From NCBI GenBank assembly GCA_963736005.1, contig CAVTNB010000001.1, forward strand, positions 1,952,001 to 2,016,000: a stretch of DNA of 64,000 nt. Direction: 5' to 3'. Under the pieces are notes generated by a model that worked only from the letters and a program-made list of their open reading frames with translations, was not told where the DNA came from and searched no databases. Within the stretch, counting starts at the first letter, position 1, and the number at the start of each line of letters is the position of its first letter. Source of the DNA: an uncultured Pseudomonadota bacterium (GTDB lineage: Bacteria; Vulcanimicrobiota; Vulcanimicrobiia; Eremiobacterales; Eremiobacteraceae). Shown piece after piece: positions 9,280 to 52,760 of this stretch. Made by a program: the position numbers and the translations under genes.

Positions 9280-11268
<1,989 letters not shown>

Positions 11269-11269
11269 T

Positions 11270-11294
11270 GTCGTCTCGCGAATGTATTCGCGAG
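11270..11294 (+). repeat. REP family A variant
   Basis: GTCG-T-CTCGCGAA-TGTA-TTCGCGAG just after the groEL stop. Confidence 0.7.
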
Positions 11295-11305
11295 CTGCGA
11301 TACGG

Positions 11306-11334
11306 GGGCGCGATTCACTCGCGCCCTTTTCTTT
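11306..11334 (+). terminator. Intrinsic terminator after groEL
   Basis: GGGCGCGA-TTCAC-TCGCGCCC followed by TTTTCTTT. Confidence 0.75.
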
Positions 11335-11345
11335 ATGACAAGGAC

Positions 11346-11836
11346 TTACTTGGGTCGCGGCAACTCGAACAACGCCCTGACGGCAAGTCGAAATCTCGGG
11401 GGAGCTGAGTGGGTGATGACCTTCTTGTCGCCGAGTTTGGATCGACCCCTCGAATCGCACACCGTGACGGATCGGGTTTTGGGATCCACAAGAAAAACAA
11501 CCTGAGTGCCGGCTGCGAGATACACGCGCAACTTTTCTTCGATATCTGCTCGCCGATCGACCGGCGACTTCACTTCGACCTCGACGTCGGGCGCCACTAA
11601 GGGTTCCTCAGTGGTCTCCATCAGGAGGACGACGTGCTTCACCTGGCGGGCGCACCCGAAAGCACCACTCCGTGGCTACGACGCCCGCCCGCTCTGATTG
11701 CGCCCAGCGGTCGAGCGCTGCGAAGAATCTGCCCTGGGCGAGCCCGTGCTTTTGCTTTGGACTCACCTTTTGCAGGACGCGTCCATTGACCCCATTCGAA
11801 CGCGGGCTTACCCTCTGGAACCTTGATCTCAAACAT
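11346..11836 (-). pseudogene. Uma2-family (DUF820) endonuclease-like gene, disrupted
   Basis: KPAFEW / VNGRVLQKVSP..KHG and APDVEVEVKSP..EEKLRVYLAAG..LVDP in three frames; the usual PDV segment looks deleted. Confidence 0.7.
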
Positions 11837-11908
11837 ATTACGCTCACGAGGATTCTATCACGGGTGGCCGCGTGCCGGTCAAGGGGGCGCGACGGGAGTC
11901 GCCAATGA

Positions 11909-12484
11909 ATGCACGACATGCACTGGTCATTTGAAGTTTTCAACGCGGCAGCCGCTATCGGCACGTTCTTTGTTATTTTGGCAACGGCAATTGCAGCCGT
12001 GTACGAATTGCGCCACATTCAGGCCAAGACGCAACTGCAAGCGCTCGTCGCCATCCTCCAGGATTTTCGCAGCGAAGAGCTTCAGGAAGCCTTGCGCTAT
12101 GTGCAATCCTATTTAGATCAGAAGATGCACGACCAGCGATATCGCGAGGAGCTTGCGGCGATAGGTTTCGTTGATGCTCGGGTCCATCCGGAAATGACGG
12201 TGTGTAACTGGTTCAACGAAATGGGCACGCTCGTGAAGAATGAGATCGTGGCCTCCGATGTCTTTTTGGATCAGTTTGCCAGACTCATCAATCAATATTG
12301 GAAGATCCTCGCTCCGACCATCGCCATATTGCGCCGCCATCGCGGTGATCTGCAGTATCAGAATTTTGAGTACCTTGCGGCCCTCTCGATGCGATGGGTC
12401 ACGCGACATCCTCAGGGAATCTATCCACAACGCGTCCCTCATATGCAGATCCAAGACATCTGGCTCGAGGCTGACAAAAACTGA
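11909..12484 (+). CDS. Membrane-anchored hypothetical protein, DUF4760-like
   Basis: N-terminal TM helix; CNWFNEMGTLVK and YQNFEYLA motifs; family call is from recall only. Confidence 0.55.
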   Translation: MHDMHWSFEVFNAAAAIGTFFVILATAIAAVYELRHIQAKTQLQALVAILQDFRSEELQEALRYVQSYLDQKMHDQRYREELAAIGFVDARVHPEMTVCNWFNEMGTLVKNEIVASDVFLDQFARLINQYWKILAPTIAILRRHRGDLQYQNFEYLAALSMRWVTRHPQGIYPQRVPHMQIQDIWLEADKN

Positions 12485-12530
12485 GCCTACGGGAAGCTAG
12501 GCCACACTTCGTGAACTAAAACAGGACACC

Positions 12531-12647
12531 ATGGATACCGTAGGCCAGGCGCCCAAAGCGCTACCAACCGGTACTGTAGCCTTTTTGTTCACCGACATCG
12601 AGGGGTCGACCGAGAACCTTGCGATCGAGGAGGTCGCGCGTGTCTGA
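12531..12647 (+). pseudogene. Collapsed remnant of a cyclase-STAND-TPR gene (38 codons)
   Basis: MDTVGQAPKALPTGTVAFLFTDIEGSTE-NLAIEEVARV*: N-terminal cyclase motif fused directly to the family's C-terminal motif. Confidence 0.85.
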
Positions 12648-15400
12648 AGCTATAGCCGAGCGCAAGCCGCTCCCGAGCGGCACCGTCACCTTCCTTTTTA
12701 CGGACATCGAAGGCTCGACCGAGCGCTGGGAGCGTTATCGCGAGCCGATGAAGGCTGCCGTTCGCGAGCACGAAGAGCTCATCCGCTCAGCCGTTCGCGC
12801 ACACAACGGTTACGTCTTCAAGACTATGGGTGACGCTTTGTGCGCTGCCTTCTACAACGTCGCCGATGCGATCGCTGCGGCGCTCAAGGCCCAACTCGCT
12901 TTAGTTAAAGAAGACTGGGCGAACGTTGGTGGTCTGAAAGTTCGCATGGCTATTCATACTGGCCACACAGACGAGCGACAGGGCGACTACTTTGGCCCGG
13001 CCGTCAATCGCGTTGCGCGCTTGCTTGCAATCGGTCACGGAGGTCAAATACTCGTTTCAGGCGCGAGCGCCGATCTTTCTCAAGGAGAACTTCCCCCGCA
13101 GGCAGCGCTCCGTGACTTGGGGGCTCACAGGTTAAAAGATTCTCACCCATCCGGAGCAAGTCTATCAACTTGTTTCTCCCGATCTTGCGCCCGAATTTCC
13201 GCCGCTCCGATCCCTCGAAGCGCTCCCCAACAATTTGCCGCTCCAGATCACAAGCTTCGTCGGAAGGGAGCTTGAGCTTCTGACCGTATCGGAAGCGCTC
13301 GCGAAGCATCGGCTGGTCACGCTGGTTGGTGCGGGTGGCGTGGGAAAAACGCGGCTCGCGTTGCAGGCGGGTGCGGATTTCCTTGATCGTTACGAAGATG
13401 GTGTCTGGCTCGTCGAGCTCGCGCCAATCTCGGACCCGGCGCTCGTTCCGAGCGCCGTCGCATCGATCTTTCACGTTCGCGAGGGCGAAAATCGCACCGT
13501 CACAGAGGCTCTTCTCCACGCTCTCAAGCCGCGTCGGGCGCTGATTATCTTCGACAACTGCGAACACGTTGTCGAAGCAGCGGCGCGCCTGATCGATGCT
13601 ATTCTTCGAAACTGCCCACATGTTCGCATCATTGCCACAAGCCGGCAAGGCCTGAGCATCGCCGGTGAAGCCGTGCATCGGGTGGCGTCCCTTGCCGTTC
13701 CGGAGGCACAAAAGGAGCTCACTGCCGAGCAAGCGATGCAGCATGGCGCGGTCGCTCTCTTCGTCGAGCGAGCGATTGCGGCGACCGAGTCATTCCGCTT
13801 GACTGACCAAAATGCATCGATTGTCGCCCGCTTATGCCAGCGCTTGGACGGGATTGCCCTCGCCATCGAACTGGCTGCTCCGCGCCTCAAGGCCCTCAGC
13901 GTCGAGCAGCTGGAGAACAAACTCAACGAGCGGTTTCGCATTCTTACAGGCGGCAGTCGCACGGCTTTACCCCGCCAGCAAACGATGCGCGCGCTCGTGG
14001 ATTGGAGCTACGAGTTACTCACCGAAGATGAAAAGACTCTCTTCCGTAGAGTAGCCGTGTTTGGCGGCAGCTGGACCCTTGATGCCGCGGGCGCGATCTG
14101 TGCTGATGACAAGCTCGAAGAGTGGGCTGTCCTCGACCTCCTGCAATCCTTGGTCGACAAGTCCATGGTGGTCGCAAAGCTGTCAGGTTCGGAGCAGCGC
14201 TACCGGCTGCTCGAATCAACGCGACAATATGCGCACGAGTTGTTGGAAAAAAGCGGCGAACTCGAACCGATGCAAATCCGTCACGCTGCCTTGTACCTTG
14301 ACCTAGCAACACGTGCGGAGTCACTGTACTGGTCGACGCCGACTCGCGCATGGGTAGCTCTGCTCGAGCCAGACAATGACAATCTTCGCGCCGCACTTGA
14401 TTGGGCACTTGGGGAAAAGCGCGACATCGAGCTAGGAAGTGCCCTAGCGGCCAAGCTAGCGAGATATTGGCACATCACAGTATACGAGGCTGAAGGCAGA
14501 GCGCGCATTGAATCTGCGCTTGCCTTAAGTGATGATATCAGCTCAAAAGAAACGATTGCTACCCTATGGTTAGGGCTCAGGCTTCTTGTCAGCAATGCAG
14601 GGAGTGCCTGGGACGCCCTCGGGGAGATCTCGCAACGAGCATTTGAATTAAATCGAGAGCTCGGCAATGAGGAGGGCATGACGGTAGCGCTCACGGGTAT
14701 CGCTGAGAGACATATTCGGCAATTTAGACACGATGAAGCAAAAAAGCTATTGGACGAAGCCCTCGCGCTTGCTCAGAAAATCGAAAATCGTCGTCTGATC
14801 GGAACTATAAAATCAGCGATGGCACGAAATCTTCACTTTGGTGGTAGAACTGATGAAGCACGCAGCTATTATGCGGAGGCGCTCGGCATTGCGCGCGCTC
14901 AGGGGGACGACCGGCTCCGAAGCACGATTGTCGGCAACCTCGGCGAGGTGGAGTTTCAGCAAGGCGACGCTCTTCGAGCGCTGGAGCTAGGCCGCGAAAG
15001 CGCTGAGTCGATCGGAGCCAACCAGTATATTCCTTTCAACAATATCGCCGCGTACTTGCTGTTTCTTGGCCGATTCGATGAAGCACGCACCGCAGCGCGC
15101 CAGGCGCTGCGGCTGGCCCGGGATTCCCAGGTGAGTGGTCACGTCGCCATCTCCACGCAAAATCTTGCACACGTCGCTACGGCGAAAGGCGATCCTAGGC
15201 TTGCTGCGCGCCTTCTGGGTTATGCAAACAAAGCTCTCGTCCGGCATAACTTTGCCGTTGAATATACCGAGCAGACTACGAATACGAAACTGACCGAGCT
15301 TCTGAAGGAGGCACTTGGTGGAGATGGGCTTGCGCAATTGCTCAAGGAGGGCGAGGGGTTGACTGAAGATCAAGCTGTCGAAGAAGCCCTCAAAATCTAG
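12640..15400 (+). CDS. Class III adenylate/guanylate cyclase + STAND (NB-ARC/AfsR-like) ATPase + TPR protein, copy 1 (one +1 frameshift near 13140)
   Basis: FTDIEGST, KTMGDA, DYFGPAVNRVARL; Walker A GAGGVGKT, Walker B FDNCEH; AAAGATTCTCACC has one extra T relative to paralogous KDL. Confidence 0.9.
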
Positions 15401-15433
15401 CATGCTAGTGCTCATCGCGCAATTGGGTCGCGC

Positions 15434-15527
15434 GTCGCGAATAAATTCGCGACAACTACATTGATCTTGGAAGTAGTCGCGCAAATTTATTTGCGCAAGA
15501 ATGTCGTCGCGCAAATTTATTTGCGCG
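15434..15527. repeat. Cluster of three family-A REPs between cyclase copies 1 and 2
   Basis: One inverted copy (15434-15459) and two direct copies (from 15473 and 15503). Confidence 0.88.
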
Positions 15528-15543
15528 GCATGCGAGGGATCTG

Positions 15544-18309
15544 TTGTCTGAAGCCATAGCCGAACGCAAACCGCTGCCAAGCGGCACCGTCACCTTCCTT
15601 TTCACCGATATCGAAGGATCGACCGAACGCTGGGAGCGTCATCGCGACAAGATGCAAGTGGCTGTGCGCCGCCATGAAGAGATCTTGCAGTTAGCCATTG
15701 CGGCGCACGATGGCTACGTCTTCAAGACCGTGGGAGATGCGTTTTGCGCTACCTTTCGAACCGCGCCGGACGCAATCGGGGCGGCGCTCGACGCTCAGCG
15801 CGCGCTGGCGAAGGAAAATTTCTCGACAGTTGACGGGCTGAGCGTACGGATGGCCGTCCACACCGGTCTCTCATACGAGCGCAGCGGTGACTACTTCGGT
15901 CCAACCGTCAACCGCGTTGCGCGTCTGCTTTCTATCGGCCATGGCGGCCAGGTGCTTGTCTCAGGCACCGCGAGCGATTTAGCGCAAGGCGAATTGCCGC
16001 CGCGAATCACTTTCCGCGATCTCGGCGCACAGCGGCTCAAAGATCTCGCGCAACCCGAGCAAGTATATCAGCTCGTCGCTCCCGACCTGCCACAAGAGTT
16101 TCCGCCGCTGCGCTCCCTGGACGCGCTGCCGAACAATCTACCATTGCAAATCACGAGCTTTGTCGGTCGCGACGAAGAAATCAAAACGATTGAGAAACGT
16201 CTCCAACAGGCGAGACTCTTGACGCTCGTGGGTTCAGGTGGTGTCGGAAAAACAAGGCTGGCTTTGCAAGTAGGTGCGGACCTACTCGATCAATACGAGG
16301 ACGGCGTATGGCTCGTGGAATTCGCGCCGCTCACAGACCCAGATCTCGTCCCAAGCGTGGTTGCGGGCGTTCTCGGCGTTGCTGAAGTCGCGAATCGGTC
16401 GCTCGTCGATTCGATCGTGTACTGGCTCAAACCAAAGCATGCGTTGCTGATCCTCGACAACTGCGAACATGTTGTCGAGGCGGCAGCCAAAATCGTCGAT
16501 GCAATCTTACGCGGCTGTCCTCAGGTACGCCTCATGGTCGCAAGCCGCCAAGGCTTAGGCATGGATGGAGAAACGGTTCACCGCGTTGCGTCCCTCAGCG
16601 TCCCCGAAGGCCAGGATGGGCTGAACGCTCGCGACGCGTTGCAATACGGTGCCGTTGCGCTCTTCCTTGAACGCGCCGCTGCTGCTGTGGAAAACTTCTC
16701 CCTAACCGACGACAACGCAGAGACGGTCGCTCAGATCTGCCGGCGGCTTGACGGCATTGCGCTGGCGATCGAACTCGCCGCGCCTCGCCTCAAGGCGCTG
16801 ACCCTCGATCAACTTTCGCAACGGCTCAACGAGCGCTTTCGCCTGCTGACCGGGGGAAAACGAACCGCTCTTCAGCGACAGCAGACGATGCGAGCCCTCA
16901 TCGACTGGAGCTACGATCTCTTAGCTGACGCAGAGAAAAGGCTTTTGTGGCGTGTCGCCATTTTTGCTGGAGGTTGGACGCTCGACGCCGCCGCGGACGT
17001 TTGCTCGGATGAAAATATCGAAACATGGGATGTCATCGATCTTTTGACCTCACTTGTCGACAAGTCGCTCGTTGCCGCAGAGCTTCACGGTACGTCGCCG
17101 CGCTATAGACTTGGTGAATCGACCCGCGAATATGCTTTGGAGAAGCTTGATGCAAGCGGCGAGCGCCAAAAAATTGCGCGCAAGCACGCAGAATATTTCG
17201 CCAAAGTTGCAGAGAAGGCTGATGCCACGTTCAACACCATGCCACTAGGTACGTGGATCCCGCCGCTGCTTGTCGAGGTAGACAACTTCCGCGCCGCTCT
17301 CGACTGGACGTTAAGCGAAAACCACGACCGTGCTCTCGGTGGAGGTCTGGCCGGCGCGCTTGAAGGCCTCTGGGTCGAGGGAGGCATGGAAGCCGAGGGA
17401 GCCCGCTGGGTGGGAGAGGCGCTTTCGGCAGACAACAGCGAGCTATCCAAAGACATAGTGGCCCGCCTATGGCGAACGCTCTCAGCAATACGCGGCTATG
17501 AGGGGGAGCCGGCGTGCGCCGCAGCCGAGCGCGCATGCGCTCTTTACAAGAGTCTAGGCAACCAGCGTGGGCTTGCACAGTCGCAACTAGCCTTGGCAAA
17601 CGGTCTGTTCCGCATGGGGCGCAACGAAGAGATGAAACAACCCTTACGCGAAGCGACTGCAACCTTCCGCGAACTGGGCGACACGTGGTGGCTCGCCCGA
17701 ACCTTGGACCGCGGGGCTACCCTCGCGCTCATCGAGGGCGACATCGAAGCCGGTCGTAAGGGTTTCAAAGATTCTCTCGCCTTCTATAAGGCACACGGAG
17801 ACGATGCGGGTTGGGATCGCACCCTCGCCAACCTTGCCGAAGTAGAGTTTCAAGCCGGCAACATCGAGCAAGCCATTGCCTACGCAACGGAGGCCAAAGA
17901 GATAGACGAACGCCTCAAACGGAAGTTGCCTCTCGGAGTTACCCTGTGCAATCTTGCCGCGTATCGAATCGCGCTCGACCAAATAGACGAAGCGCGCGCC
18001 GACGCGCGTGCCGCGCTGCGGGCGGGACGCGAAGCGCAATCGACCCAGCATATCTATATAGCCGCGCAGCACCTAGGTCTCATTAGCGCGCTGCGAGGTG
18101 ACCCGCGCGTGGCCGTCCGTCTTGCCGGGTTCGCAAACAAAGGATACAAGGGCTACGGGAATCAGCGCGAGCCAACGGAGCAAATTGCCTACGATAGGCT
18201 TATTTCAACGGTGAGCGAGCACCTAAGCGAAGAAGAGCTGACGGCGCTACTGGCTGAGGGAGCTGCCCTATCAGAAGATCAGGCAGTCGAAGAGGCGCTG
18301 CGTGTCTGA
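15544..18309 (+). CDS. Class III cyclase + STAND ATPase + TPR protein, copy 2
   Basis: 921 aa; same catalytic, Walker A and Walker B motifs; TTG start with GAGGGA RBS. Confidence 0.93.
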   Translation: MSEAIAERKPLPSGTVTFLFTDIEGSTERWERHRDKMQVAVRRHEEILQLAIAAHDGYVFKTVGDAFCATFRTAPDAIGAALDAQRALAKENFSTVDGLSVRMAVHTGLSYERSGDYFGPTVNRVARLLSIGHGGQVLVSGTASDLAQGELPPRITFRDLGAQRLKDLAQPEQVYQLVAPDLPQEFPPLRSLDALPNNLPLQITSFVGRDEEIKTIEKRLQQARLLTLVGSGGVGKTRLALQVGADLLDQYEDGVWLVEFAPLTDPDLVPSVVAGVLGVAEVANRSLVDSIVYWLKPKHALLILDNCEHVVEAAAKIVDAILRGCPQVRLMVASRQGLGMDGETVHRVASLSVPEGQDGLNARDALQYGAVALFLERAAAAVENFSLTDDNAETVAQICRRLDGIALAIELAAPRLKALTLDQLSQRLNERFRLLTGGKRTALQRQQTMRALIDWSYDLLADAEKRLLWRVAIFAGGWTLDAAADVCSDENIETWDVIDLLTSLVDKSLVAAELHGTSPRYRLGESTREYALEKLDASGERQKIARKHAEYFAKVAEKADATFNTMPLGTWIPPLLVEVDNFRAALDWTLSENHDRALGGGLAGALEGLWVEGGMEAEGARWVGEALSADNSELSKDIVARLWRTLSAIRGYEGEPACAAAERACALYKSLGNQRGLAQSQLALANGLFRMGRNEEMKQPLREATATFRELGDTWWLARTLDRGATLALIEGDIEAGRKGFKDSLAFYKAHGDDAGWDRTLANLAEVEFQAGNIEQAIAYATEAKEIDERLKRKLPLGVTLCNLAAYRIALDQIDEARADARAALRAGREAQSTQHIYIAAQHLGLISALRGDPRVAVRLAGFANKGYKGYGNQREPTEQIAYDRLISTVSEHLSEEELTALLAEGAALSEDQAVEEALRV

Positions 18310-21067
18310 AGCAGTGGCCGAACGCGCGCCGCTCCCCACTGGAACCGTTACCTTTCTCTTCAGCGACATCGAAGGTTCAACCGAGCGATGGGAACGCCAC
18401 CGCGAAGATATGAAAGCAGCCGTCGCATGGCACGATACGATCATGCGAAAAGTTCTTGAGGCACACGGCGGTCATATCTTCAAAACCATGGGTGATGCAT
18501 TCTGCGTTGCCTTCAAGACGGCCCCTCAGGCGGTTGCCGCCGCGACCGAAGCGCAACGCGCCATAGAAAATGAAGATTGGTCGAAGGTCGGCGGCATCAG
18601 TGTTAGGATGGCAATCCACACTGGTCTCGCTGACGAGCGCGACGGAGATTACTTCGGTCCAACCGTCAATCGTGTCTCCCGGTTGCTGTCTATCGGTCAT
18701 GGTGGTCAAGTACTCGTCTCCGGTGTGAGCACGGAACTCTCGCAGGGCATGATGCCATCTCAAGCAACGCTGCGCGACCTCGGAGCCCATCGTCTGCGCG
18801 ACTTGATCCAGCCCGAGCAAGTGTATCAACTTCTCGCACCTGGACTGCCCGCAGATTTTCCAGCCCTGCGCTCCCTCGAATCGCTGCCCAACAACCTGCC
18901 GCTCCAGCTGACGCAGCTCGTCGGTCGCGAAAATGATTTGGCTGAGATCGAAGGCCTGCTCGCAAAACACCGGCTCGTCACGCTTGTCGGCGCCGGCGGC
19001 GTCGGGAAGACCAGGCTCTCCTTGCAAGTGGGCGCCGAGGTGCTCGACCGTTTCGAGGACGGCGTTTGGTTTGTCGATCTGGCGCCCCTAAACGATCCGG
19101 CCTTCATCCCGAGCAGACTCGCAGGCGTGTTCAACCTCGGCGATGCGGGTGGGCGGCCGCTGGAAGAAGTCGTGGCCCGTGCGCTCCAGTCTCGCCATCT
19201 GCTCATCATCCTCGACAACTGCGAACACCTCGTCTCCGCTGCAGCTCGCATGGCCGAGCTGCTCTTGCGCGGCTGCCCACACGTTCGCATTCTCGCCAGT
19301 TCCCGAGAGGGGCTCGGTATCGAAGGTGAGATCGTCTTGCGCGTGCCATCGCTCGCGGTGCCGGCCGCGGAGCGCGACATGACGGCGACCGAGGCCGCTC
19401 GTTTCGGTGCCATCGCGCTCTTCGTCGAACGCGCCAACGCCGCTGACCGGCGGTTCGCACTCAACGATAAGAATGCGCCGATCATCGCGCGGATTTGCGA
19501 GCAGCTCGACGGCATTCCGCTAGCCATCGAGATGGCTGCCGCGCGCGTCAAGGTGCTCAGCGTTGAGCAGCTCGCTGGTCGCTTGGAAGATCGTTTTCGC
19601 ATTCTCACCGCCAGCAATCGCACCGCCTTGCCACGCCAGCAGACGATGCGGGCACTGATCGACTGGAGCTACGATCTTCTTTCCGACAACGAGAAGACTG
19701 TCTTTCGACGTTTGAGCGTCTTCGCTGGCGGGTGTGCACTCGATGCCGCGTCGAGCGTGTGCAGCGACGCGTCGCTCGACCCGCTTGACGTGCTCGATCT
19801 GCTGACGGGGCTCGTTGATAAGTCGCTCGTCGTCACGGAGCTCGTGGGCTCCGAGCAACGCTACCGCTTGCTCGCCTCGACGCGCCAATACGCGACCGAG
19901 CTGCTCGAGAAAAGCGGCGAAGCCGACCTCGTGCGGGCGCGTCACGCTGAGTTCTTCAATGATCTCGCGCAAAGGGCCGAGGATGATTGGAGCACGACGC
20001 CGTCGCGAGTCTGGATGGAGCGTCTGTTGCCGGATATCGATAATTTTCGGGCGGCACTCGATTGGGCGGTTACCGCGCGCCACGACGTCGAGCTTGGCGC
20101 TCGCCTGGCTGCATCCCTCAAACTCTTCTGGGTGGGCGGCCCTCAGCCAGAAGAGGGCCGCCGCCGACTCATCGCTGCGGTGCAGGCGATTCCGGGTGCA
20201 ATCCAGCCGGAGTTGGAGGCAAAACTTCGGCACGCCGCAGCCCATCTCGAGATACGCGCGTGGCGCTACGACCCTGCGCGTGAGGCTGGCAACCGCGCGC
20301 TGGAACTCTATACCCAACTCGGAGATCAGAAGGGCGTCGCTTGGGTTTCAAGCATTCTCGGCGAGGCGCTCCTGCGATTGCGCCGACACGATGAGGCGGA
20401 GCGATTGCTTGACCACGCGTTGGATATATTTCAGCGATTGGGTGAATCGCGGATGATCGGCCTCGTTCTTACTCAGAAGGGGCGTAATCTGCATTTCCAG
20501 CAGCGCCACGAAGAGGGATTGGAATTCTATAATCGAGGCTTGGCCTACGCGAAGGACGCAGGCGACGCTGGACTTGTCGACTCCATCGGGAACAACATCG
20601 CCGAGGTCGAGTTCCGCCGAGGTAACGTCGAGAAGGCGCTCGACATCGCCCGCGGCATTCTGCCGAACTATCCGGCTTGGGAGCGCATCGCTCTTGCCCT
20701 TACCCGAGCAAATGTCGCCGCCTACCTCATTTATCTTGGGCGCTTTGATGAAGCGCGGGAAGTCGCACGAGCAGCGATCAAAGACGCGCGGCCCGCCGGG
20801 CCGGTAACCTTCGCCGAGTCAGTGCAACATTTCGCCGCGATCGCCGCGGGTCAACAGCACTGGGAGCAGGCCGCGCGACTACTAGGCTATTGCGATCGCG
20901 CCTATGCCGACCTTGGGACGCTCATCGACTACACGGAGCAGCAAGAACACGATAAACTCGTCGCGGCTCTCAAGAAGAACCTCAAGCCAGAAGTCCTCAC
21001 GACGTTGCTCGCCGAGGGCGCAAATTGGGGCGACGATCGGGTCTACGATGAGGCCTTGAAGGTGTAA
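18302..21067 (+). CDS. Class III cyclase + STAND ATPase + TPR protein, copy 3
   Basis: 921 aa; GTGTCTGA overlap with stop of copy 2; same motifs. Confidence 0.93.
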   Translation: MSEAVAERAPLPTGTVTFLFSDIEGSTERWERHREDMKAAVAWHDTIMRKVLEAHGGHIFKTMGDAFCVAFKTAPQAVAAATEAQRAIENEDWSKVGGISVRMAIHTGLADERDGDYFGPTVNRVSRLLSIGHGGQVLVSGVSTELSQGMMPSQATLRDLGAHRLRDLIQPEQVYQLLAPGLPADFPALRSLESLPNNLPLQLTQLVGRENDLAEIEGLLAKHRLVTLVGAGGVGKTRLSLQVGAEVLDRFEDGVWFVDLAPLNDPAFIPSRLAGVFNLGDAGGRPLEEVVARALQSRHLLIILDNCEHLVSAAARMAELLLRGCPHVRILASSREGLGIEGEIVLRVPSLAVPAAERDMTATEAARFGAIALFVERANAADRRFALNDKNAPIIARICEQLDGIPLAIEMAAARVKVLSVEQLAGRLEDRFRILTASNRTALPRQQTMRALIDWSYDLLSDNEKTVFRRLSVFAGGCALDAASSVCSDASLDPLDVLDLLTGLVDKSLVVTELVGSEQRYRLLASTRQYATELLEKSGEADLVRARHAEFFNDLAQRAEDDWSTTPSRVWMERLLPDIDNFRAALDWAVTARHDVELGARLAASLKLFWVGGPQPEEGRRRLIAAVQAIPGAIQPELEAKLRHAAAHLEIRAWRYDPAREAGNRALELYTQLGDQKGVAWVSSILGEALLRLRRHDEAERLLDHALDIFQRLGESRMIGLVLTQKGRNLHFQQRHEEGLEFYNRGLAYAKDAGDAGLVDSIGNNIAEVEFRRGNVEKALDIARGILPNYPAWERIALALTRANVAAYLIYLGRFDEAREVARAAIKDARPAGPVTFAESVQHFAAIAAGQQHWEQAARLLGYCDRAYADLGTLIDYTEQQEHDKLVAALKKNLKPEVLTTLLAEGANWGDDRVYDEALKV

Positions 21068-21119
21068 GTATGGAGCGCGCGGGGTTCGCGCCCGGAACCG
21101 TGGAACACTCAGGTAAACC

Positions 21120-23903
21120 ATGGACCACGCAGCTGAGAGCCGTCTAGCCTCCCAGGCATCGTCCCTTATACCTTCGGGGACGGTCACGTTTCTTTTTACC
21201 GACATTGAAGGTTCGACGGAGCGTTGGGAACACCACCGCGAAGCCATGAAGGCTGCGCTCAATCGGCACGACGATCTTCTTGGAAGCGCTATAACCACCA
21301 ACGGTGGGTACATCTTTAAGAAGATGGGCGACGCGTACTGCGCTGCATTTCGCACCGCGCCAGACGCCGTCAGGGCCGCGATCGCCGCTCAGCAAGCGCT
21401 GAGCAAGGAAGACTTTTCCGCGGTCAACGGTCTGCGCGTTCGCATGGCCCTGCACACGGGTTATGCGGAAGAACGAGACCACGATTACTTCGGGCCGAGC
21501 GTCAATCGAGCCTCGCGCTTGCTTTCCATTGGGCATGGCGGCCAAATGCTCGTGTCAGCCGCGGCAAGCGACCTCGTGCAAGGCGAGCTACCCGCTCAGG
21601 CGATTCTACGCGATCTTGGTGCGCATCGGCTCAAAGACTTGGCCCACCCCGAACAAGTTTTCCAGTTGGTCGCCGCGGGCTTGCCCACAGATTTTCCACC
21701 GTTGCGTTCGCTCGACTCGCTCCCCAACAATCTTCCTCTGCAAGTAACCAGCTTCATCGGCCGCGACGAAGACGTTGCGGAAGTCAAGAAGCTCCTTGAA
21801 AAAACGCGACTGCTGACCTTAACTGGGAGCGGTGGCGTCGGCAAGACACGCTTAGCTTTGCAAGTGAGCGCCGAGTTACTCGAACGGCACCCCGACGGAG
21901 TCTGGCTCGTCGACTTGGCCGGGTTGCAAGACTCCGACTTGGTCGCCAGTGAAGTCGCGTCGGTCCTCGGCGTTCGCGTGGGCGCCGACCGCTCGCTCGC
22001 CGACTCCATTATTTATGCATTGAAACCAAAACAATCACTCATCATCTTGGACAATTGCGAACATCTCGTGACGGCTGCGGCCCACATCGCTGGTGCGATC
22101 ATCAAAGGAGCGCCCAACGTTCGTTTGATGGCTACGAGCCGCGAGGGCCTCGGCATCGCGGGCGAAACGATATATCGCGTCAATTCACTTGCAATTCCGA
22201 AAACAAACACCGAGGTTACATCGGCAAACGCCTCCGGTTATGGCTCGATCGCGCTCTTTATCGACAGGGCAACGGCTGCAAACACCCGGTTCATGCTCAG
22301 CGATGCCGACGCAAAAATCGTGGCCGACATCTGCCGCAGTCTCGACGGTATTCCATTCGCCATCGAGCTCGCCGCTGCGCGAGTCAAACTGATGTCTGTG
22401 GCGCATCTTGCGGAGCGTCTGAAGGAGCGCTTCCGCATTCTCACCGGAGGGGATCGAACCGCGCTGCCAAGGCAACAGACCATGCGTGCTCTCGTGGACT
22501 GGAGCTACAACTTGCTGAACGAGCGGGAGAGGACAATCCTCAACCGCAGCGCAGTTTTTGCAGGCGGGTGGACGCTCGAGGCGGCAAGCGAAATTTGTTC
22601 AGACGATGAGATCGAAGCGTGGGAAGTCTTGGACTTGCTCTCCTCGCTCGTTGACAAGTCGCTCGTCGTCGTTGAAGTCGGCGGTACAAGCGAACGATAC
22701 CGATTGCTCGAGTCCACATGGCAGTACGCGCGCGAAAAGCTTGCCGAAGCCAAAGAGAACGAGCAGCTCAATCGCAAGCACGCAGAATATTTTCTGCGCG
22801 TTGCTCAGGCTGCCGATGCGGCTTACGAATCGACGCCAAGCGACACATGGATTGCCGGACTCGAACCTGAGTTGGACAATTACCGTGCTGCCATGGGTTG
22901 GGCGTTGCTCAACAAGCATGACGTTGCTTTAGGAGCAGCGCTCGCCGCCGCTTTGCGAGATTTGTGGATCAGCGTCGGATCGCGAGTGGAGGGTTTGCGG
23001 TGGATCAACCTGGCACTCGACGCGCTGGGAGGCATGGAACCGAATCCAACGACCGCTACCCTATGGCAAGGCCTTGCCGTGACCAGCGAAGGTTTTGGAG
23101 AAGCAGCATTTGAGGCAAGCGAACGCGCGCTCAAGCAGGCCCAGGGACTGGGAGACGAGTCGCTTATCGCCTTGGCTCAGTCGGGCTACGGTTTTGCTCT
23201 CGACAGGCGCGGACGCTTCGATGAGGCGCAAGAAGTCTATACGAAGTCTGTCCCCCAGCTGCGCAAGACAGGTCGCACGAAGCAGCTAGCTCGAGTGCTT
23301 TCCTGGTGGTCCATCATCCATTTCATTCGTGGCGCGTCGGATGAGGCGCGCAAGGGGTTCAGTGAAGCGCTTGCGGTGGCGAGAACCCTGGCGGACGAAC
23401 AGCTCATGGCCACTGTCTTGGGCAATCTCGCCGAACTTTCGTTTGCGGAGGGCGATGTCGACAAGGCGATAGTGAGCGGCGAAGAGTCGCTCGCTCTACG
23501 GGTCAAAGCGAAAAATGCAACCGGCACCGCGAACGGATATACCAACCTCGCCGCCTACCATCTTGCTCGAGGGGAGGTGGAAAGAGCGAAGGCGCTCGCT
23601 CGCGAAGCCATCCGTTGGGCACGCGAAGGCCAGAGCCAGCTCATGTTAGTGTGGATCATCCAACATTTGACGGTTATCAGGGCGCGGGAAGGCGATCCAA
23701 AAGCCGCGGCACGCCTTCTGGGATACGTCAACAAGATGTTTCTCGAGTCAGGCTTTACGCGAGAACCAACGGAACAATGGAGCTACGAGCAGCTCATGGT
23801 AGCCCTTCACGAGCATCTTACAGACGACGAGATCGGCATGCTTGGGGCGGAGGGCGCGGCCTGGACCGAAGATCAAGCGGTCGAAGAAGCCCTTAAAACC
23901 TAA
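21120..23903 (+). CDS. Class III cyclase + STAND ATPase + TPR protein, copy 4
   Basis: 927 aa; FTDIEGST, GDAYC, DYFGPSVNRASRL, GSGGVGKT and LDNCEH motifs. Confidence 0.93.
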   Translation: MDHAAESRLASQASSLIPSGTVTFLFTDIEGSTERWEHHREAMKAALNRHDDLLGSAITTNGGYIFKKMGDAYCAAFRTAPDAVRAAIAAQQALSKEDFSAVNGLRVRMALHTGYAEERDHDYFGPSVNRASRLLSIGHGGQMLVSAAASDLVQGELPAQAILRDLGAHRLKDLAHPEQVFQLVAAGLPTDFPPLRSLDSLPNNLPLQVTSFIGRDEDVAEVKKLLEKTRLLTLTGSGGVGKTRLALQVSAELLERHPDGVWLVDLAGLQDSDLVASEVASVLGVRVGADRSLADSIIYALKPKQSLIILDNCEHLVTAAAHIAGAIIKGAPNVRLMATSREGLGIAGETIYRVNSLAIPKTNTEVTSANASGYGSIALFIDRATAANTRFMLSDADAKIVADICRSLDGIPFAIELAAARVKLMSVAHLAERLKERFRILTGGDRTALPRQQTMRALVDWSYNLLNERERTILNRSAVFAGGWTLEAASEICSDDEIEAWEVLDLLSSLVDKSLVVVEVGGTSERYRLLESTWQYAREKLAEAKENEQLNRKHAEYFLRVAQAADAAYESTPSDTWIAGLEPELDNYRAAMGWALLNKHDVALGAALAAALRDLWISVGSRVEGLRWINLALDALGGMEPNPTTATLWQGLAVTSEGFGEAAFEASERALKQAQGLGDESLIALAQSGYGFALDRRGRFDEAQEVYTKSVPQLRKTGRTKQLARVLSWWSIIHFIRGASDEARKGFSEALAVARTLADEQLMATVLGNLAELSFAEGDVDKAIVSGEESLALRVKAKNATGTANGYTNLAAYHLARGEVERAKALAREAIRWAREGQSQLMLVWIIQHLTVIRAREGDPKAAARLLGYVNKMFLESGFTREPTEQWSYEQLMVALHEHLTDDEIGMLGAEGAAWTEDQAVEEALKT

Positions 23904-29509: not shown

Positions 29510-29563
29510 TCGCGCAAATTTATTTGCGCGTGATCGAGCGCGTCGCGCGAATTTATTCGCGCG
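29506..29563 (+). repeat. Two family-A REPs
   Basis: GTAGTCGCGCAAATTTATTTGCGCG and ..TCGCGCGAATTTATTCGCGCG. Confidence 0.88.
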
Positions 29564-38426: not shown

Positions 38427-38543
38427 TTAAGGGCCTAATGTAGTCGCGCGAATTCATTCGCGCGTTTGAGGGCTAAATGTAGTCGCGCGAATTCATTCGC
38501 GCGTTTGAGGGCTAAATGTAGTCGCGCGAATTCATTCGCGCGT
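38427..38543 (+). repeat. Three tandem 39-bp units each containing a family-A REP
   Basis: TTGAGGGCTAAATGTAGTCGCGCGAATTCATTCGCGCGT x3 (first unit slightly variant), directly upstream of the RAYT. Confidence 0.95.
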
Positions 38544-38579
38544 GTTGACACTTCACCACCCTGGTGGGAAACGAGCGGG

Positions 38580-39032
38580 GTGAGCTTCACGCCACCCCGC
38601 CTTCAAGGATTTGACTACACCGCGTCCCGCACATATTTCGTTACTTTCTGCGTGCTCGATCGCCAGCCGGTATTCCGACGAGAGGCCGCGGCAGATATCG
38701 CGCTATCAGCGATCTTGAATCTCAGAGCCAGGGAATGGTATTGGATTCGCGCGTATTGTATTATGCCCGATCACATACATCTGGTGTTTAAGAAAAACAA
38801 ATCCGCATCCTTACAGATTGTTGTATCCACCTTAAAGCGATCGATCCTCTTGCGTTGCCGGGCAGCCGGCATTCCGATGCGCTGGCAATCAGGATTCTAC
38901 GACCGGATCGTACGAGAACACGAAAAATCCGACGAGTTTGTCAAGTATATATTGCTTAACCCAGTTCGCGCTGGCCTTGTCGGCGATTTTCACGAGTACA
39001 AGTATTGTGGGCGCCTTGACCCGTGGTTTTGA
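38580..39032 (+). mobile_element. REP-associated tyrosine transposase (RAYT; Y1 HUH, IS200/IS605 superfamily)
   Basis: RLQGFDY..YFVTFC, AYCIMPDHIH (HUH), WQSGFYDRIVR and YILLNPVRAGL (catalytic Tyr); flanked by inverted REPs. Confidence 0.92.
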
Positions 39033-39043
39033 GTGCAGATACA

Positions 39044-39105
39044 CCCGCGAATAAATTCGCGGGACAACACAGGGGAGACGCTCGCGAATAAATTCGCGAG
39101 ACTAC
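39044..39105 (-). repeat. Two inverted family-A REPs downstream of the RAYT
   Basis: CCCGCGAATAAATTCGCGGGACAAC and CTCGCGAATAAATTCGCGAGACTAC. Confidence 0.9.
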
Positions 39106-51079: not shown

Positions 51080-52760
51080 AGATAGACCATTCCCAAGGAT
51101 TCCAAAAGGTCGTGACCGCATGCGCGGGCTTATAGCCCCGAACGTCCGAGTTTGCGACGTCTTGTCTCACGTCGAACCACAGAACGATGATCGGGTCTTG
51201 CTGAGCTAAGATCTCCTGGATGCGATCGTAGGCGGCTTTTCGCTTTGCCCGATCGTAGACGCTTAGCGCGATATTTTCCGCAGCATCCAGGCGCCGGTCG
51301 CAGAAGCGGAAATAGTTGGACCCCCATGGCGGACGCTGATTGCACATAAAGATTTGGGAATCATCGGGGTCGACGCCGTTTGACCAGGAGTCAAAAAAAA
51401 CGTCAAACTTTCCGGTCCGGTAAATGCCGGCTGGACCTCCAAGCACATCGGTCGGGTATTGCTTGATGTCGACAACCGCACCGACCTTTTTCCAATCGTG
51501 TTGCACGAGCACCACCACGGCCGAGCCTAATGCGGCGCCCGTCGCGCTCACAAGCGTCAGCTCTAGGGGCTGTCCATTCTTTGAACGCACGCCATCGGGT
51601 CCAAGTTTCCATCCGGCATCGTCAAGCAATTTCGCAGCGCGAGCCGGATCGTAGGGATACTGCCTAACCTTTGGATCGAACGCCCACAAAAAAGGCGGCT
51701 GGTCGCTCCCTGCCGGCAAGTACCGTCCGTGCGTGAGGGCCGTTCCCATGCGCACAATGTTGGTTGCATAGTGGAGCGCCTCGCGCACGCGAGGGTCGCT
51801 CACGACGGGCCGTTCGGTATTAAAATCCAGCGACTCGAAACTTGTAAACGGAATTTGATAGACCTTGATCCCCGGCTCGCCGGTGAGCGCCGCAATTTGA
51901 TCGGCCGGCGCAGCAATTCGAAAATCAACTTCGTGCGTTCTGAACTGCGTCAAGATCGTGTCGTCATTTGGAATAATCTTGAAGATGATTTCTTTTAATC
52001 GCGGTGGGCCACGCCAATATGCGGCATTCGCGACCATGCGGATTTCTATGTCCTTTTCGTTCTCGATCACGCGAAATGGACCGGTGCCGATCGGCAAGTT
52101 GTTGAACGCCACCTGGTTGAGATCTGCGTAGCTCGAGAGCAGATGCTTGGGCAAGATGCTATACGTTGCATCCGCCGGCGCAAAGAAGGTCTCAACGAAG
52201 GGAGCGAAGGGCTTCTTCAAATGCACTCTGATGGTGAAGGCATTGAGTTTCTCGATCGACGCCACCGAGTCATAACCCATTCTGCTTTGGACGTTGTTGC
52301 GCGGGTTGAGCACCTGCCGCCACGAGAAGATGACGTCGTCCGCCGAAAACGGTGCGCCATCTTGCCATCGCACGCGCGGACGTAAATGATACGTGATGGT
52401 CAAACCGTCTTGGCTGATGCCTCCGTCTTGCTGTGTCGGCACCTGGGTGGCTAGTTCGGGGACGAGTTCGCTACGATCGTTCCAGCGAAAAAGATAAGCG
52501 CCCCAAAACATCGAGAGGTCGGTTGCCACTTGCCCGAAGGAGAGCATCGGATTGAGGTTATCTGGTTGACGCGTGTCCGCGATCCGAAGCACTCCGCGCA
52601 CGGTCCACGGGTTTGTTCCCGATCCAACGGCCGTCTCGTGCGGCCCGACCCGCGTGCAAGCAACCAACAGCACAAGCACAACCAAATGTAGTCGCGCGAA
52701 TTTATTCGCGCGCCCTTTCGCATGTAGCCGCGCGAATTTATTCGCGCGCCCTATCCTCAC
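51078..52760 (-). CDS. Peptide/nickel ABC transporter substrate-binding lipoprotein (SBP family 5)
   Basis: Lipobox LVAC; VPELA, WQDGAPFSADDV and PIGTGPF motifs; GTG start overlaps cvpA TGA. Confidence 0.92.
   Translation of the reverse strand: MRIGRANKFARLHAKGRANKFARLHLVVLVLLVACTRVGPHETAVGSGTNPWTVRGVLRIADTRQPDNLNPMLSFGQVATDLSMFWGAYLFRWNDRSELVPELATQVPTQQDGGISQDGLTITYHLRPRVRWQDGAPFSADDVIFSWRQVLNPRNNVQSRMGYDSVASIEKLNAFTIRVHLKKPFAPFVETFFAPADATYSILPKHLLSSYADLNQVAFNNLPIGTGPFRVIENEKDIEIRMVANAAYWRGPPRLKEIIFKIIPNDDTILTQFRTHEVDFRIAAPADQIAALTGEPGIKVYQIPFTSFESLDFNTERPVVSDPRVREALHYATNIVRMGTALTHGRYLPAGSDQPPFLWAFDPKVRQYPYDPARAAKLLDDAGWKLGPDGVRSKNGQPLELTLVSATGAALGSAVVVLVQHDWKKVGAVVDIKQYPTDVLGGPAGIYRTGKFDVFFDSWSNGVDPDDSQIFMCNQRPPWGSNYFRFCDRRLDAAENIALSVYDRAKRKAAYDRIQEILAQQDPIIVLWFDVRQDVANSDVRGYKPAHAVTTFWNPWEWSI
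52688..52748 (+). repeat. Two tandem family-A REPs inside the SBP 5' coding region
   Basis: GTAGTCGCGCGAATTTATTCGCGCG and GTAGCCGCGCGAATTTATTCGCGCG, 36-bp period. Confidence 0.9.

Follow-up and report, generated by a model that had tools for sequence, protein, structure and literature searches.

What is sensed, and to what end, by a tandem array of genes that join a nucleotide cyclase to a switch of the kind found in nucleotide-binding leucine-rich repeat (NLR) receptors? Such an array lies in a stretch of 64,000 nucleotides from the genome of an uncultured member of the Eremiobacteraceae (G000, the genome under study); the whole stretch is called the window here, and coordinates given without a contig are positions in it. 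Four collinear paralogs, c1 to c4, stand head to tail on the plus strand, three of them intact according to the open reading frame (ORF) listing and its translation. A preliminary description had seen in them a diversifying, NLR-like repertoire in which each protein detects a different ligand, such as a phage protein. We consider it rather probable that they are instead conserved cytoplasmic ligand sensors, in which oligomerisation of a nucleotide-binding oligomerisation domain (NOD) would pair the cyclase domains to make cyclic AMP (cAMP).

The first gene, c1 (12640..15400, plus strand), encodes 919 amino acids when base 13141 is skipped and the translation is re-joined. It is followed by c2 (15544..18309, plus; intact, 921 amino acids), c3 (18302..21067, plus; intact, GTG start, 921 amino acids) and c4 (21120..23903, plus; intact, 927 amino acids). 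The four collinear copies of about 920 residues that had been described are present, although c1 is not one open frame as assembled. Overlapping starts and stops had also been noted, and these occur at two junctions only, between c2 and c3, where the c3 start overlaps the c2 stop by 8 nt, and between c1 and a relic gene that precedes it; the c1/c2 and c3/c4 junctions have gaps of 143 and 52 nt. The octamer GTGTCTGA has exactly two matches in the window, at 12640 and 18302, each at a gene junction; taken alone it is no rarer than chance, since 42 of 100 shuffled sequences contain at least two matches.

Each protein is almost certainly a class III cyclase followed by a NOD of STAND type (signal transduction ATPases that have numerous domains) and a tetratricopeptide repeat (TPR) sensor of about 330 residues. 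In c2, for which Pfam, an AlphaFold2 (AF2) model, Foldseek and PDB profile matches were combined, the cyclase covers approximately residues 13-180 (nt 15580-16083), the NOD plus arm approximately residues 196-590 (nt 16129-17313) and the TPR domain approximately residues 591-921 (nt 17314-18306). The Pfam model Guanylate_cyc (PF00211) scores 50-54 bits in c1 to c4 against a cut-off of 21.9 bits, and TPR_12 is found in all four with E-values of 5e-8 to 2e-21; matches to NB-ARC, AAA_16, AAA_22, NACHT and nSTAND are weak and mostly below cut-off, the NB-ARC match of c4 scoring 29.5 against 23.5 bits. The motifs F(T/S)DIEGST, FK(T/K)xGDA, DYFGP, VNR(V/A)(A/S)R, G(A/S)GGVGKT and (I/L)(F/L)DNCEH are present in all four proteins, and the class III catalytic set and the Walker A and Walker B motifs that had been recognised at the outset are complete in each. 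On textbook grounds and from an alignment with GRESAG4 we take the cyclase motifs to supply the metal-binding aspartates, a Lys/Asp substrate pair and the transition-state Asn and Arg. In class III cyclases such a Lys/Asp pair selects ATP as substrate, not pyrimidine nucleotides or GTP. The catalytic D, K, D, D, N and R are complete in all 39 cyclase-bearing members from five genomes, which bears out the adenine-type assignment, and the K/T of Walker A and the D/E of Walker B are found in 40 of 40 family members. Across an alignment of 52 homologues the catalytic and Walker positions are invariant or at least 90% conserved, with both Walker motifs invariant in all 52.

Comparisons with known structures point the same way. 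In a PDB profile search the cyclase domain is closest to trypanosomal GRESAG4 (GRESAG4.3, E 1e-29), Mycobacterium avium Ma1120 and Rv1900c, and the family profile matches AfsR (8k60, E 2e-24; 8jke, E 1.5e-23). The 52-sequence alignment yielded an AF2 model of c2 whose mean predicted local distance difference test (pLDDT) score is 79.6; its NOD and TPR domains are well modelled, with helical repeats at residues 596-920. When this model was compared with the PDB by Foldseek, PH0952 (6mfv) ranked first (E 5.9e-13, 722 columns, about 14% identity), followed by Apaf-1 (1z6t, 3sfz), CED-4 and plant NLR resistosomes, all with a probability of 1.00, so that the STAND-type NOD-TPR assignment of the preliminary description stands. 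No GerE/LuxR match was found in c1 to c4 with Pfam at E <= 0.01, and in the model the protein ends in TPR capping helices. All NCBIfam matches (HaaT, LipJ, AfsR and FxSxx-TPR) fall far under their cut-offs, the AfsR model giving E-values of 1e-11 to 7e-14, and no NCBIfam model names a cyclase-STAND-TPR family.

If the array were a repertoire under diversification, its sensor domains should carry the mark of that process. Compared in pairs, the four paralogs share 63-72% identity over the cyclase, 53-66% over the NTPase, 56-63% over the arm and 29-38% over the TPR domain. Averaged over the pairs in 60-residue windows, identity ranges from 59 to 76% along the cyclase and linker, from 50 to 66% along the NOD and arm and from 26 to 42% along the TPR domain. 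Divergence is indeed concentrated after the region of the sequence RAALDW, where it had been placed, with the TPR the most divergent domain; the motif itself is confined to c1, c2 and c3 and reads RAAMGW in c4. The proportion of synonymous differences (pS) between paralogs is saturated, at 0.70-0.84 in every window, and the duplications must therefore be old. For the same reason the ratio of nonsynonymous to synonymous rates (dN/dS) between paralogs is uninformative, and orthologues were compared in its place. Against G002, a genome of the same genus with 88-90% nucleotide identity to the array genes, dN/dS is 0.03-0.12 across all domains and no 60-codon window exceeds 0.40; the TPR domains of c1, c2 and c4 give 0.09, 0.07 and 0.09, the NODs 0.04-0.08 and c1 as a whole 0.07. 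Against G003 and G004, where dS is near saturation, the TPR domains give 0.11-0.16 where estimable and the other domains 0.04-0.08. Elevated dN/dS had been expected on the concave face of the TPR domain; as a domain average the ratio is low both in the same genus (0.07-0.09) and at greater distance (0.11-0.16), far below the neutral value and indicative of purifying selection.

The history of the locus was read from a quick IQ-TREE analysis, supported by Shimodaira-Hasegawa-like approximate likelihood-ratio tests (SH-aLRT) only, of 40 members from G000, G002, G003, G004 and G007. This tree takes in all eight G004 matches and all four G007 matches; it omits two fragment ORFs, for which read-through versions were used, a partial gene at a contig end (G003:C125), one TAG-interrupted G002 gene and some other G002 and G003 matches. 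The genes c1, c2, c3 and c4 define four separate orthogroups (SH-aLRT 96-100), of which that of c1 includes G002, G004 and G007, that of c3 G003 and G004, and that of c4 G002, G003 and G004; c2 has orthologues only in the same-genus G002 and G003, and no G004 or G007 match groups with it. The order of the genes is relic-c1-c2-c3-c4 in G000, relic-c1-c2-c4 in G002, where c3 is missing from the syntenic locus, and c1-c3-c4 in G004, which belongs to another genus; in G003 one contig reads DUF4760-c2 and onwards and another carries c3-c4. Copy number at the locus, which had been singled out for comparison among relatives, does therefore vary. The array members are not one another's closest relatives, the c2 cyclase being 81% identical to that of an unlinked paralog (G000:C1:135454) and the c2 TPR domain 41-42% identical to those of three unlinked paralogs as against 33-37% to those of its array neighbours. 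Read from tree and gene order, the four genes are anciently duplicated and vertically inherited.

The idea of a diversifying repertoire fares poorly against these results, given that the TPR domains are under purifying selection, the paralogs are old and saturated, and c1, c3 and c4 are syntenic in another genus. Purifying selection in the TPR domains and an orthologous array in relatives had both been named as findings that would speak against such a repertoire, and they are largely what we found. We think it likely that the proteins have an ordinary, non-immune sensory role, with stable ligands, metabolites or endogenous proteins as their signals, because their TPR domains are old and conserved, because the array has been passed on vertically within a core part of the chromosome, and because a sister protein with a LuxR domain shares the same chassis.

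How the array does change can be seen from its upstream end. The ATG at 12531, which had been taken as the start of the first copy, opens a 38-codon mini-ORF (c0; 12531..12647, plus strand; sequence and translation), the relic of a fifth family member and not copy 1. Its protein, MDTVGQAPKALPTGTVAFLFTDIEGSTE followed by NLAIEEVARV and a stop, fuses the first 28 cyclase residues (to DIEGSTE) directly to the C-terminal tail of the family (ending EEVARV), and the stop lies inside GTGTCTGA, which also contains the c1 GTG start at 12640. Judged from this junction, the relic is the remnant of a fifth gene after internal loss of about 2.65 kb. It is kept as an open frame in G002, with 89% nucleotide identity and the catalytic Asp replaced (FSAIEGST), and was not found in G003, G004 or G007. 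The loss of c3 from G002 has also left a trace, in that the first ~60 nt of the gene following c2 there, overlapping start included, resemble c3 (76-88% identical, with 39-50% for c4), and the gene is c4-like from the GTVTFLFTDIEGST box onwards (86-97%, with 46-80% for c3). This mosaic indicates that c3 was lost in G002 by unequal crossover in the most conserved stretch, the GTVTFLFTDIEGST box. From these two cases, change in the array is slow: a copy is lost now and then, either to unequal crossover in GTVTFLFTDIEGST or to internal deletion.

The array is one part of a larger family. The G000 genome (2.84 Mb, estimated to be 84% complete) encodes 11 members, seven of them unlinked to the array. 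Ten of the 11 carry a cyclase domain and account for ten of the 11 PF00211 matches in the genome, the eleventh match being a GAF-cyclase; the same genome has 12 HisKA matches and six proteins that bind cyclic nucleoside monophosphates (cNMPs). In the remaining family member (G000:C3:329098-331540), of the form LuxR/GerE-NOD-TPR, an N-terminal DNA-binding domain replaces the cyclase, and this protein is nested in the family tree beside a cyclase-bearing G002 member. Another variant, a 663-residue cyclase-NB-ARC protein (G000:C3:36442-38434), is TPR-less and has orthologues in G002 and G007 (650-663 residues). Near the unlinked paralog G000:C1:77856 there is a small second-messenger neighbourhood, with a CRP-type regulator that is among the six cNMP-binding proteins (cNMP_binding plus HTH_Crp_2; G000:C1:76120-76728) 1.1 kb upstream and a GGDEF-EAL protein (G000:C1:72947-74224) 3.6 kb upstream.

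Beyond this genome, family matches at E <= 1e-20 were obtained in 40 of 41 genomes from the same class, with 1-22 in each; the tally includes the unpublished G008, G011 and G013 and becomes 37 of 38 without them. A large protein collection contains at least 8000 relatives at E <= 1e-10, from organisms that include Eremiobacteraceae and under names that include 'predicted ATPase/class 3 adenylate cyclase'. The architecture had been said to be known in databases, and it is already catalogued. Among species-representative genomes, 578 of 607 pattern matches encode relatives, and the best 80 of these 578 loci come from Eremiobacterota/Vulcanimicrobiota, Actinomycetota including Mycobacterium, Chloroflexota, Armatimonadota, Dormibacterota and others; a cyclase domain was matched in 61 of the 80, and eight of the 80 stretches hold two or three copies of the NOD. 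As a genomic finding the array is ordinary, being old, conserved and vertically inherited.

A mechanism for these proteins can be proposed from the paradigm of MalT, PH0952 and Apaf-1 together with the rule that class III cyclases work as dimers. The active sites of these enzymes form across the dimer interface, and they are active only as dimers. STAND proteins with TPR sensors are described, in the available text of a study of this group (PMC6468293), as passing from a closed ADP-bound monomer, through binding of an inducer, to a multimer of the ATP form, with PH0952 and MalT held under double autoinhibition. By analogy, each of the four proteins would rest as a closed, ADP-bound monomer that contacts from the arm and the TPR domain keep shut. 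A ligand specific to each paralog would bind the TPR domain and release the autoinhibition, ADP would be exchanged for ATP and the NODs would multimerise. The N-terminal cyclase domains would then meet as catalytic dimers and produce 3',5'-cAMP, to be read by the cNMP-binding proteins of the genome, including regulators of the CRP type. The four genes would thereby provide four distinct and conserved input channels to what appears to be the main cAMP-producing family of the organism, with ten of its 11 class III cyclases. We regard gated oligomerisation of this kind as the more plausible mechanism, on the strength of the fold and of the analogy.

Several points weigh against the sensor reading. 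The gating of oligomerisation by ligand, the identity of the product as cAMP, the receptors of the signal and the physiological role are all deduced, and activity, oligomer and ligand are so far predictions. Modelling is poor in the latter half of the cyclase and in the linker, with pLDDT below 50 at residues 110-195. The TPR domain evolves two to three times faster than the other domains in orthologues, having 53-75% identity at the distance of G003 and G004 where the other domains have 75-89%, and in c1 its dN against G002 is two to four times higher; a few TPR sites under positive selection may be compatible with the domain averages. Copy number at the locus varies among close relatives and a relic is present, as in a birth-and-death receptor family. 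PADLOC, on which the search for defence genes relied, dates from 2023 and is blind to undescribed systems. Purifying selection is itself weak evidence against immunity, because sensors of conserved proteins need not diversify: pattern-recognition STANDs that sense conserved phage proteins are described in this way in the available text of a 2026 survey (PMC12803255). The immune reading is lowered, not eliminated, by purifying selection.

That immune reading, in which the array is an NLR- or Avs-like anti-phage cluster whose TPR domains see a phage or damage ligand and whose cAMP or other cNMP triggers defence or dormancy, draws on the Avs- and NLR-like layout of an N-terminal enzyme, a NOD and C-terminal repeats, on the TPR being the fastest-evolving domain, on copy gain and loss at the locus together with the relic, and on the multi-copy character of the family, tandem copies of which also occur at eight of the best 80 distant loci. 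It could accommodate the selection data where the survey's sensors of conserved phage proteins, which can be under purifying selection, are the model (PMC12803255), and cNMP cyclase domains are listed as messenger generators in predicted conflict systems in the available part of an earlier study (PMC7159879). We nevertheless think it unlikely. TPR dN/dS is 0.07-0.16 and synonymous differences between the paralogs have reached saturation; the array has been passed on vertically and in synteny across genera, between core-gene flanks; the best PADLOC match has an E-value of 3.8e-8, to a single mad8 model, PycC reaches about 1e-3, and for 31 of the 32 genes next to family members PADLOC returns nothing; and no gene for a cNMP-activated effector adjoins the array. 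An immune 3',5'-cAMP signal would moreover collide with housekeeping signalling, because the family supplies ten of the 11 cyclases of a genome with CRP-type regulators. The word 'cyclase' has no occurrence in the available text of the 2026 survey of defence STANDs (PMC12803255).

Whatever their ligands, the paralogs might act together or their NODs might not act as switches at all. Co-assembly of paralogs through their NODs would yield mixed oligomers and cyclase heterodimers that integrate inputs in AND or OR fashion, with the TPR-less member as a common partner, much as sensor and helper NLRs are paired. The 8-nt overlap of c2 and c3 and the same overlap at the relic/c1 junction can be read in this way, as can the adjacency of c3 and c4 kept in G003 and G004, the 53-72% identity of cyclase plus NOD compared with 31-38% for the TPR sensors, and the conservation of the TPR-less cyclase-NOD member of 650-663 residues in G000, G002 and G007. 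We hold this to be quite improbable, however, as the nearest relatives of array members are not one another (the c2 cyclase, as noted, shares 81% identity with that of the unlinked G000:C1:135454), seven of the family's 11 members lie outside the array, and relatives lose single copies while the neighbouring copies stay, which argues against an obligate partnership. A cyclase that is constitutive or otherwise regulated, and whose NOD-TPR part mainly scaffolds or localises the protein or inhibits it until proteolysis, would suit the existence of the TPR-less member; a preprint, in its available text, states that work on Rv0386 has been confined to its cyclase activity and that the role of its ATPase and TPR parts is unstudied (10.1101/2024.03.06.583649). 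Such a cyclase would leave unexplained why Walker A, Walker B and other NOD positions show no variation, in sets of 40 of 40 and 52 of 52 sequences, and why NOD dN/dS is 0.04-0.08, features that argue for a working NTPase switch, and the fold matches a resting-state STAND-TPR structure; we give this alternative very little weight. Conserved, germline-encoded intracellular pattern receptors might also co-assemble into a mixed 'cyclase-some', a hub resembling a resistosome in which the cyclase domains of different paralogs would pair and TPR inputs from foreign or damage proteins or metabolites converge on one cAMP burst. This is a long shot; if true, it would be an NLR-type oligomer with a classical second-messenger output in place of cell death, and could be the main sensory logic of Eremiobacterota, in numbers comparable to those of histidine kinases.

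Several known systems invite comparison with these proteins. The closest of those described, the Mclx proteins of Mycobacterium (Rv0386, Rv1358 and Rv2488c), are presented, in the available text of two reports, as a cyclase homology domain joined to an AAA/NB-ARC ATPase of MalT type and a LuxR helix-turn-helix domain, Rv0386 having a TPR part as well (PMC4452763; 10.1101/2024.03.06.583649). Like c1 to c4 they have an N-terminal class III cyclase domain followed by a STAND-type ATPase, they form a multi-copy family in which, by those accounts, frameshifted copies are reported, and Mycobacterium loci match residues about 12-590 of our query profile with 41-44% identity. However, c1 to c4 lack the C-terminal LuxR/GerE domain, which leaves the cyclase as sole output and makes Mclx proteins relatives of these four proteins and not members of one group with them. 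The catalytic set, complete in 39 of 39 members here, is reported as missing from Mclx2 and Mclx3 (PMC4452763, available text), and in place of the Lys/Asp pair found here Rv0386 is reported to have Gln/Asn and guanylyl side activity, features that the preprint text attributes to Rv2488c. According to both sources, as far as their text was available, Rv0386 has been assayed for its cyclase only (10.1101/2024.03.06.583649, PMC4452763), and the preprint describes the ATPase of such proteins as unstudied.

PH0952 and MalT have the NOD, the arm and the helical-repeat sensor in the same order as the array proteins, PH0952 (6mfv) being the best structural match, but the output of MalT is a C-terminal LuxR DNA-binding domain and that of c1 to c4 an N-terminal enzyme. 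AfsR, a Streptomyces regulator of the SARP-NOD-TPR form, is the nearest solved full-length relative by profile and likewise has an N-terminal output followed by a NOD and a TPR domain; in AfsR that output is a DNA-binding domain of the SARP kind and no cyclase. Avs proteins share the N-terminal effector enzyme, the NOD with its NB-ARC-type fold and a C-terminal TPR-like sensor, whereas the array has no significant PADLOC match or defence island and is vertically inherited, and its effector makes a messenger in place of acting as a nuclease, NADase or protease. In Pycsar and Pucsar, too, a class III-like nucleotide cyclase generates the signal, but the array has no adjoining cNMP-activated effector and its PycC matches have E-values of 0.002-0.005 over ~70 residues; the accounts of these cyclases available to us do not report them as fused to STAND modules, and the Lys/Asp pair found here points to ATP. 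In predicted conflict systems cNMP cyclase signal generators are fused to vWA/VMAP components, according to the available text (PMC7159879), and the corresponding text of the 2026 survey describes defence STAND clades as interspersed with others that have no defence role, transcriptional regulators for instance (PMC12803255). A literature search yielded no paper on cyclase-STAND proteins in Eremiobacterota, judging by title and abstract among the papers listed, and none on STAND-gated cyclases.

The reading of c1 as a functional gene depends on the quality of the assembly. As assembled, c1 consists of two ORFs, 12619-13275 and 13235-15400, a split that a three-frame reading traces to a single surplus base at 13141; read without it, c1 is a collinear 919-residue paralog from the GTG at 12640 to 15400. 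Four public runs were compared at c1, X2 having no coverage of 13141, and the extra base is missing from all three covering contigs (X1, X3 and X4, from three studies), as it is from the c1 orthologue of the same-genus G002. A single X1 contig spans c1 with 81 differences from the window; no public-run contig is identical to the window, so that these contigs come from relatives and not from its source. Elsewhere in the window, groEL (about 9620-11268) has about seven frame-breaking indels relative to an intact 547-residue groEL in G002, and its Cpn60 match comes only from a C-terminal ORF of 321 residues, while a 3.1-kb AcrB gene is free of such indels. Among the G002 genes, the orthologues of c2 and c4 contain three and seven single-base insertions (in G002:C5:1156000-1175900, at positions 10860-16384 of that stretch), yet have dN/dS values of 0.05 and 0.09, and its c1 orthologue, groEL and AcrB genes are all intact. 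Such clusters of single-base insertions in strongly constrained genes suggest assembly errors. The extra base at 13141 is likely to be one as well, and c1 is probably intact in nature; a true pseudogene is unlikely in view of the three contigs without the base, a dN/dS of 0.07 and the clustered indels in groEL. Given that no contig is identical to the window, the base may alternatively be a strain-specific mutation. The groEL region (9600-11280) is probably a local cluster of indel errors of the assembly, although it may be a decayed second copy. In pheT, the body of the beta chain (689 residues; 53291-55360, minus strand) and the N-terminal tRNA-binding domain (127 residues; 55357-55740, minus) are separate ORFs with a 4-nt overlap, either a natural split or another frameshift.

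The surroundings of the array are those of a core chromosomal region. Upstream lie FtsW-MurG-MurC-MurB-Ddl (dcw genes), groEL and a DUF4760 gene, and downstream an AcrB-type transporter of the RND class, an MFS fusion, Lon and pentose-phosphate genes. Around the unlinked paralogs are found genes for Ku/LigD, RecG, penicillin amidase, multicopper oxidase, GNAT proteins and the like. PADLOC gave only marginal matches for c2 to c4 (mad8, E 3.8e-8, in c4 only; PycC, E 0.002-0.005 over ~70 residues; others at 1e-4 or above), and among the 32 neighbours of family members it matched only RecG, by generic helicase similarity. Pfam found no cNMP-binding domain or cNMP-dependent effector in the ORFs flanking the array. 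Close to groEL, a 98-residue ORF (11346-11642, minus strand) matches the Uma2 (PD-(D/E)XK endonuclease-like) profile only at positions 90-142 of 172 and has weak PADLOC PDC-S03 matches (E 1e-6); it is probably a gene fragment.

The DUF4760 gene (11909..12484, plus; Pfam PF15956, E 1.9e-13), directly upstream of the array, encodes a small protein with an N-terminal hydrophobic helix and is possibly the first gene of the array transcription unit; scans for sigma-70 promoters and terminators returned sites no more numerous than in shuffled sequence. In G002, G003 and G004 an orthologous DUF4760 gene likewise lies upstream of the array, and a further copy (G000:C1:658919-659332) lies upstream of the unlinked paralog G000:C1:655962. 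The name of the domain turns up in one paper. The domain has 18 copies in G000 and none in 14 control genomes, and it was not found at any of the 80 distant family loci, searched with flanks of up to 6 kb. A conserved partnership with the array was rejected in view of its absence from those 80 loci and its 18 copies in the genome, and the link is kept as a lineage-specific association.

The spacer between c1 and c2 contains three REP-like palindromes of the pattern CGCRAATnnATTYGCG (15436..15525, no strand assigned; pattern matches). The pattern occurs 15 times in the window (none in 100 shuffles), at 11277, 15436-15525, 29513-29561, 33370, 38447-38540, 39046-39098, 52695-52746 and 60098. Its copies often stand in tandem within intergenic spacers, at distances of 30-40 nt, and the genome as a whole has 217 of them where 0.035 would be expected. 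An ORF for an IS200-type Y1 transposase (Pfam Y1_Tnp; ~38631-38951) lies within 38466-39032, with palindrome clusters on both sides, and palindromes and transposase together look like a system of repetitive extragenic palindromes and their associated transposase (REP/RAYT). An operator function of the spacer palindromes for the array was ruled out, the same 16-mer being present 217 times genome-wide. At 15404-15460 the X1 contig lacks 55 nt of the c1-c2 spacer and differs in two other letters, and the length of this REP-bearing spacer therefore varies between strains.

Our analysis draws attention to a family with about ten catalytically intact members per genome of roughly 3 Mb, a number similar to the count of HisKA histidine kinases. 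It offers a good test of whether the induced proximity of a NOD oligomer can switch an enzyme that depends on dimerisation, and it bears on the use of NLR-type machines in ordinary signalling, before or beside immunity. It bears equally on the function of the mycobacterial relatives and on environmental sensing in an uncultivated phylum.

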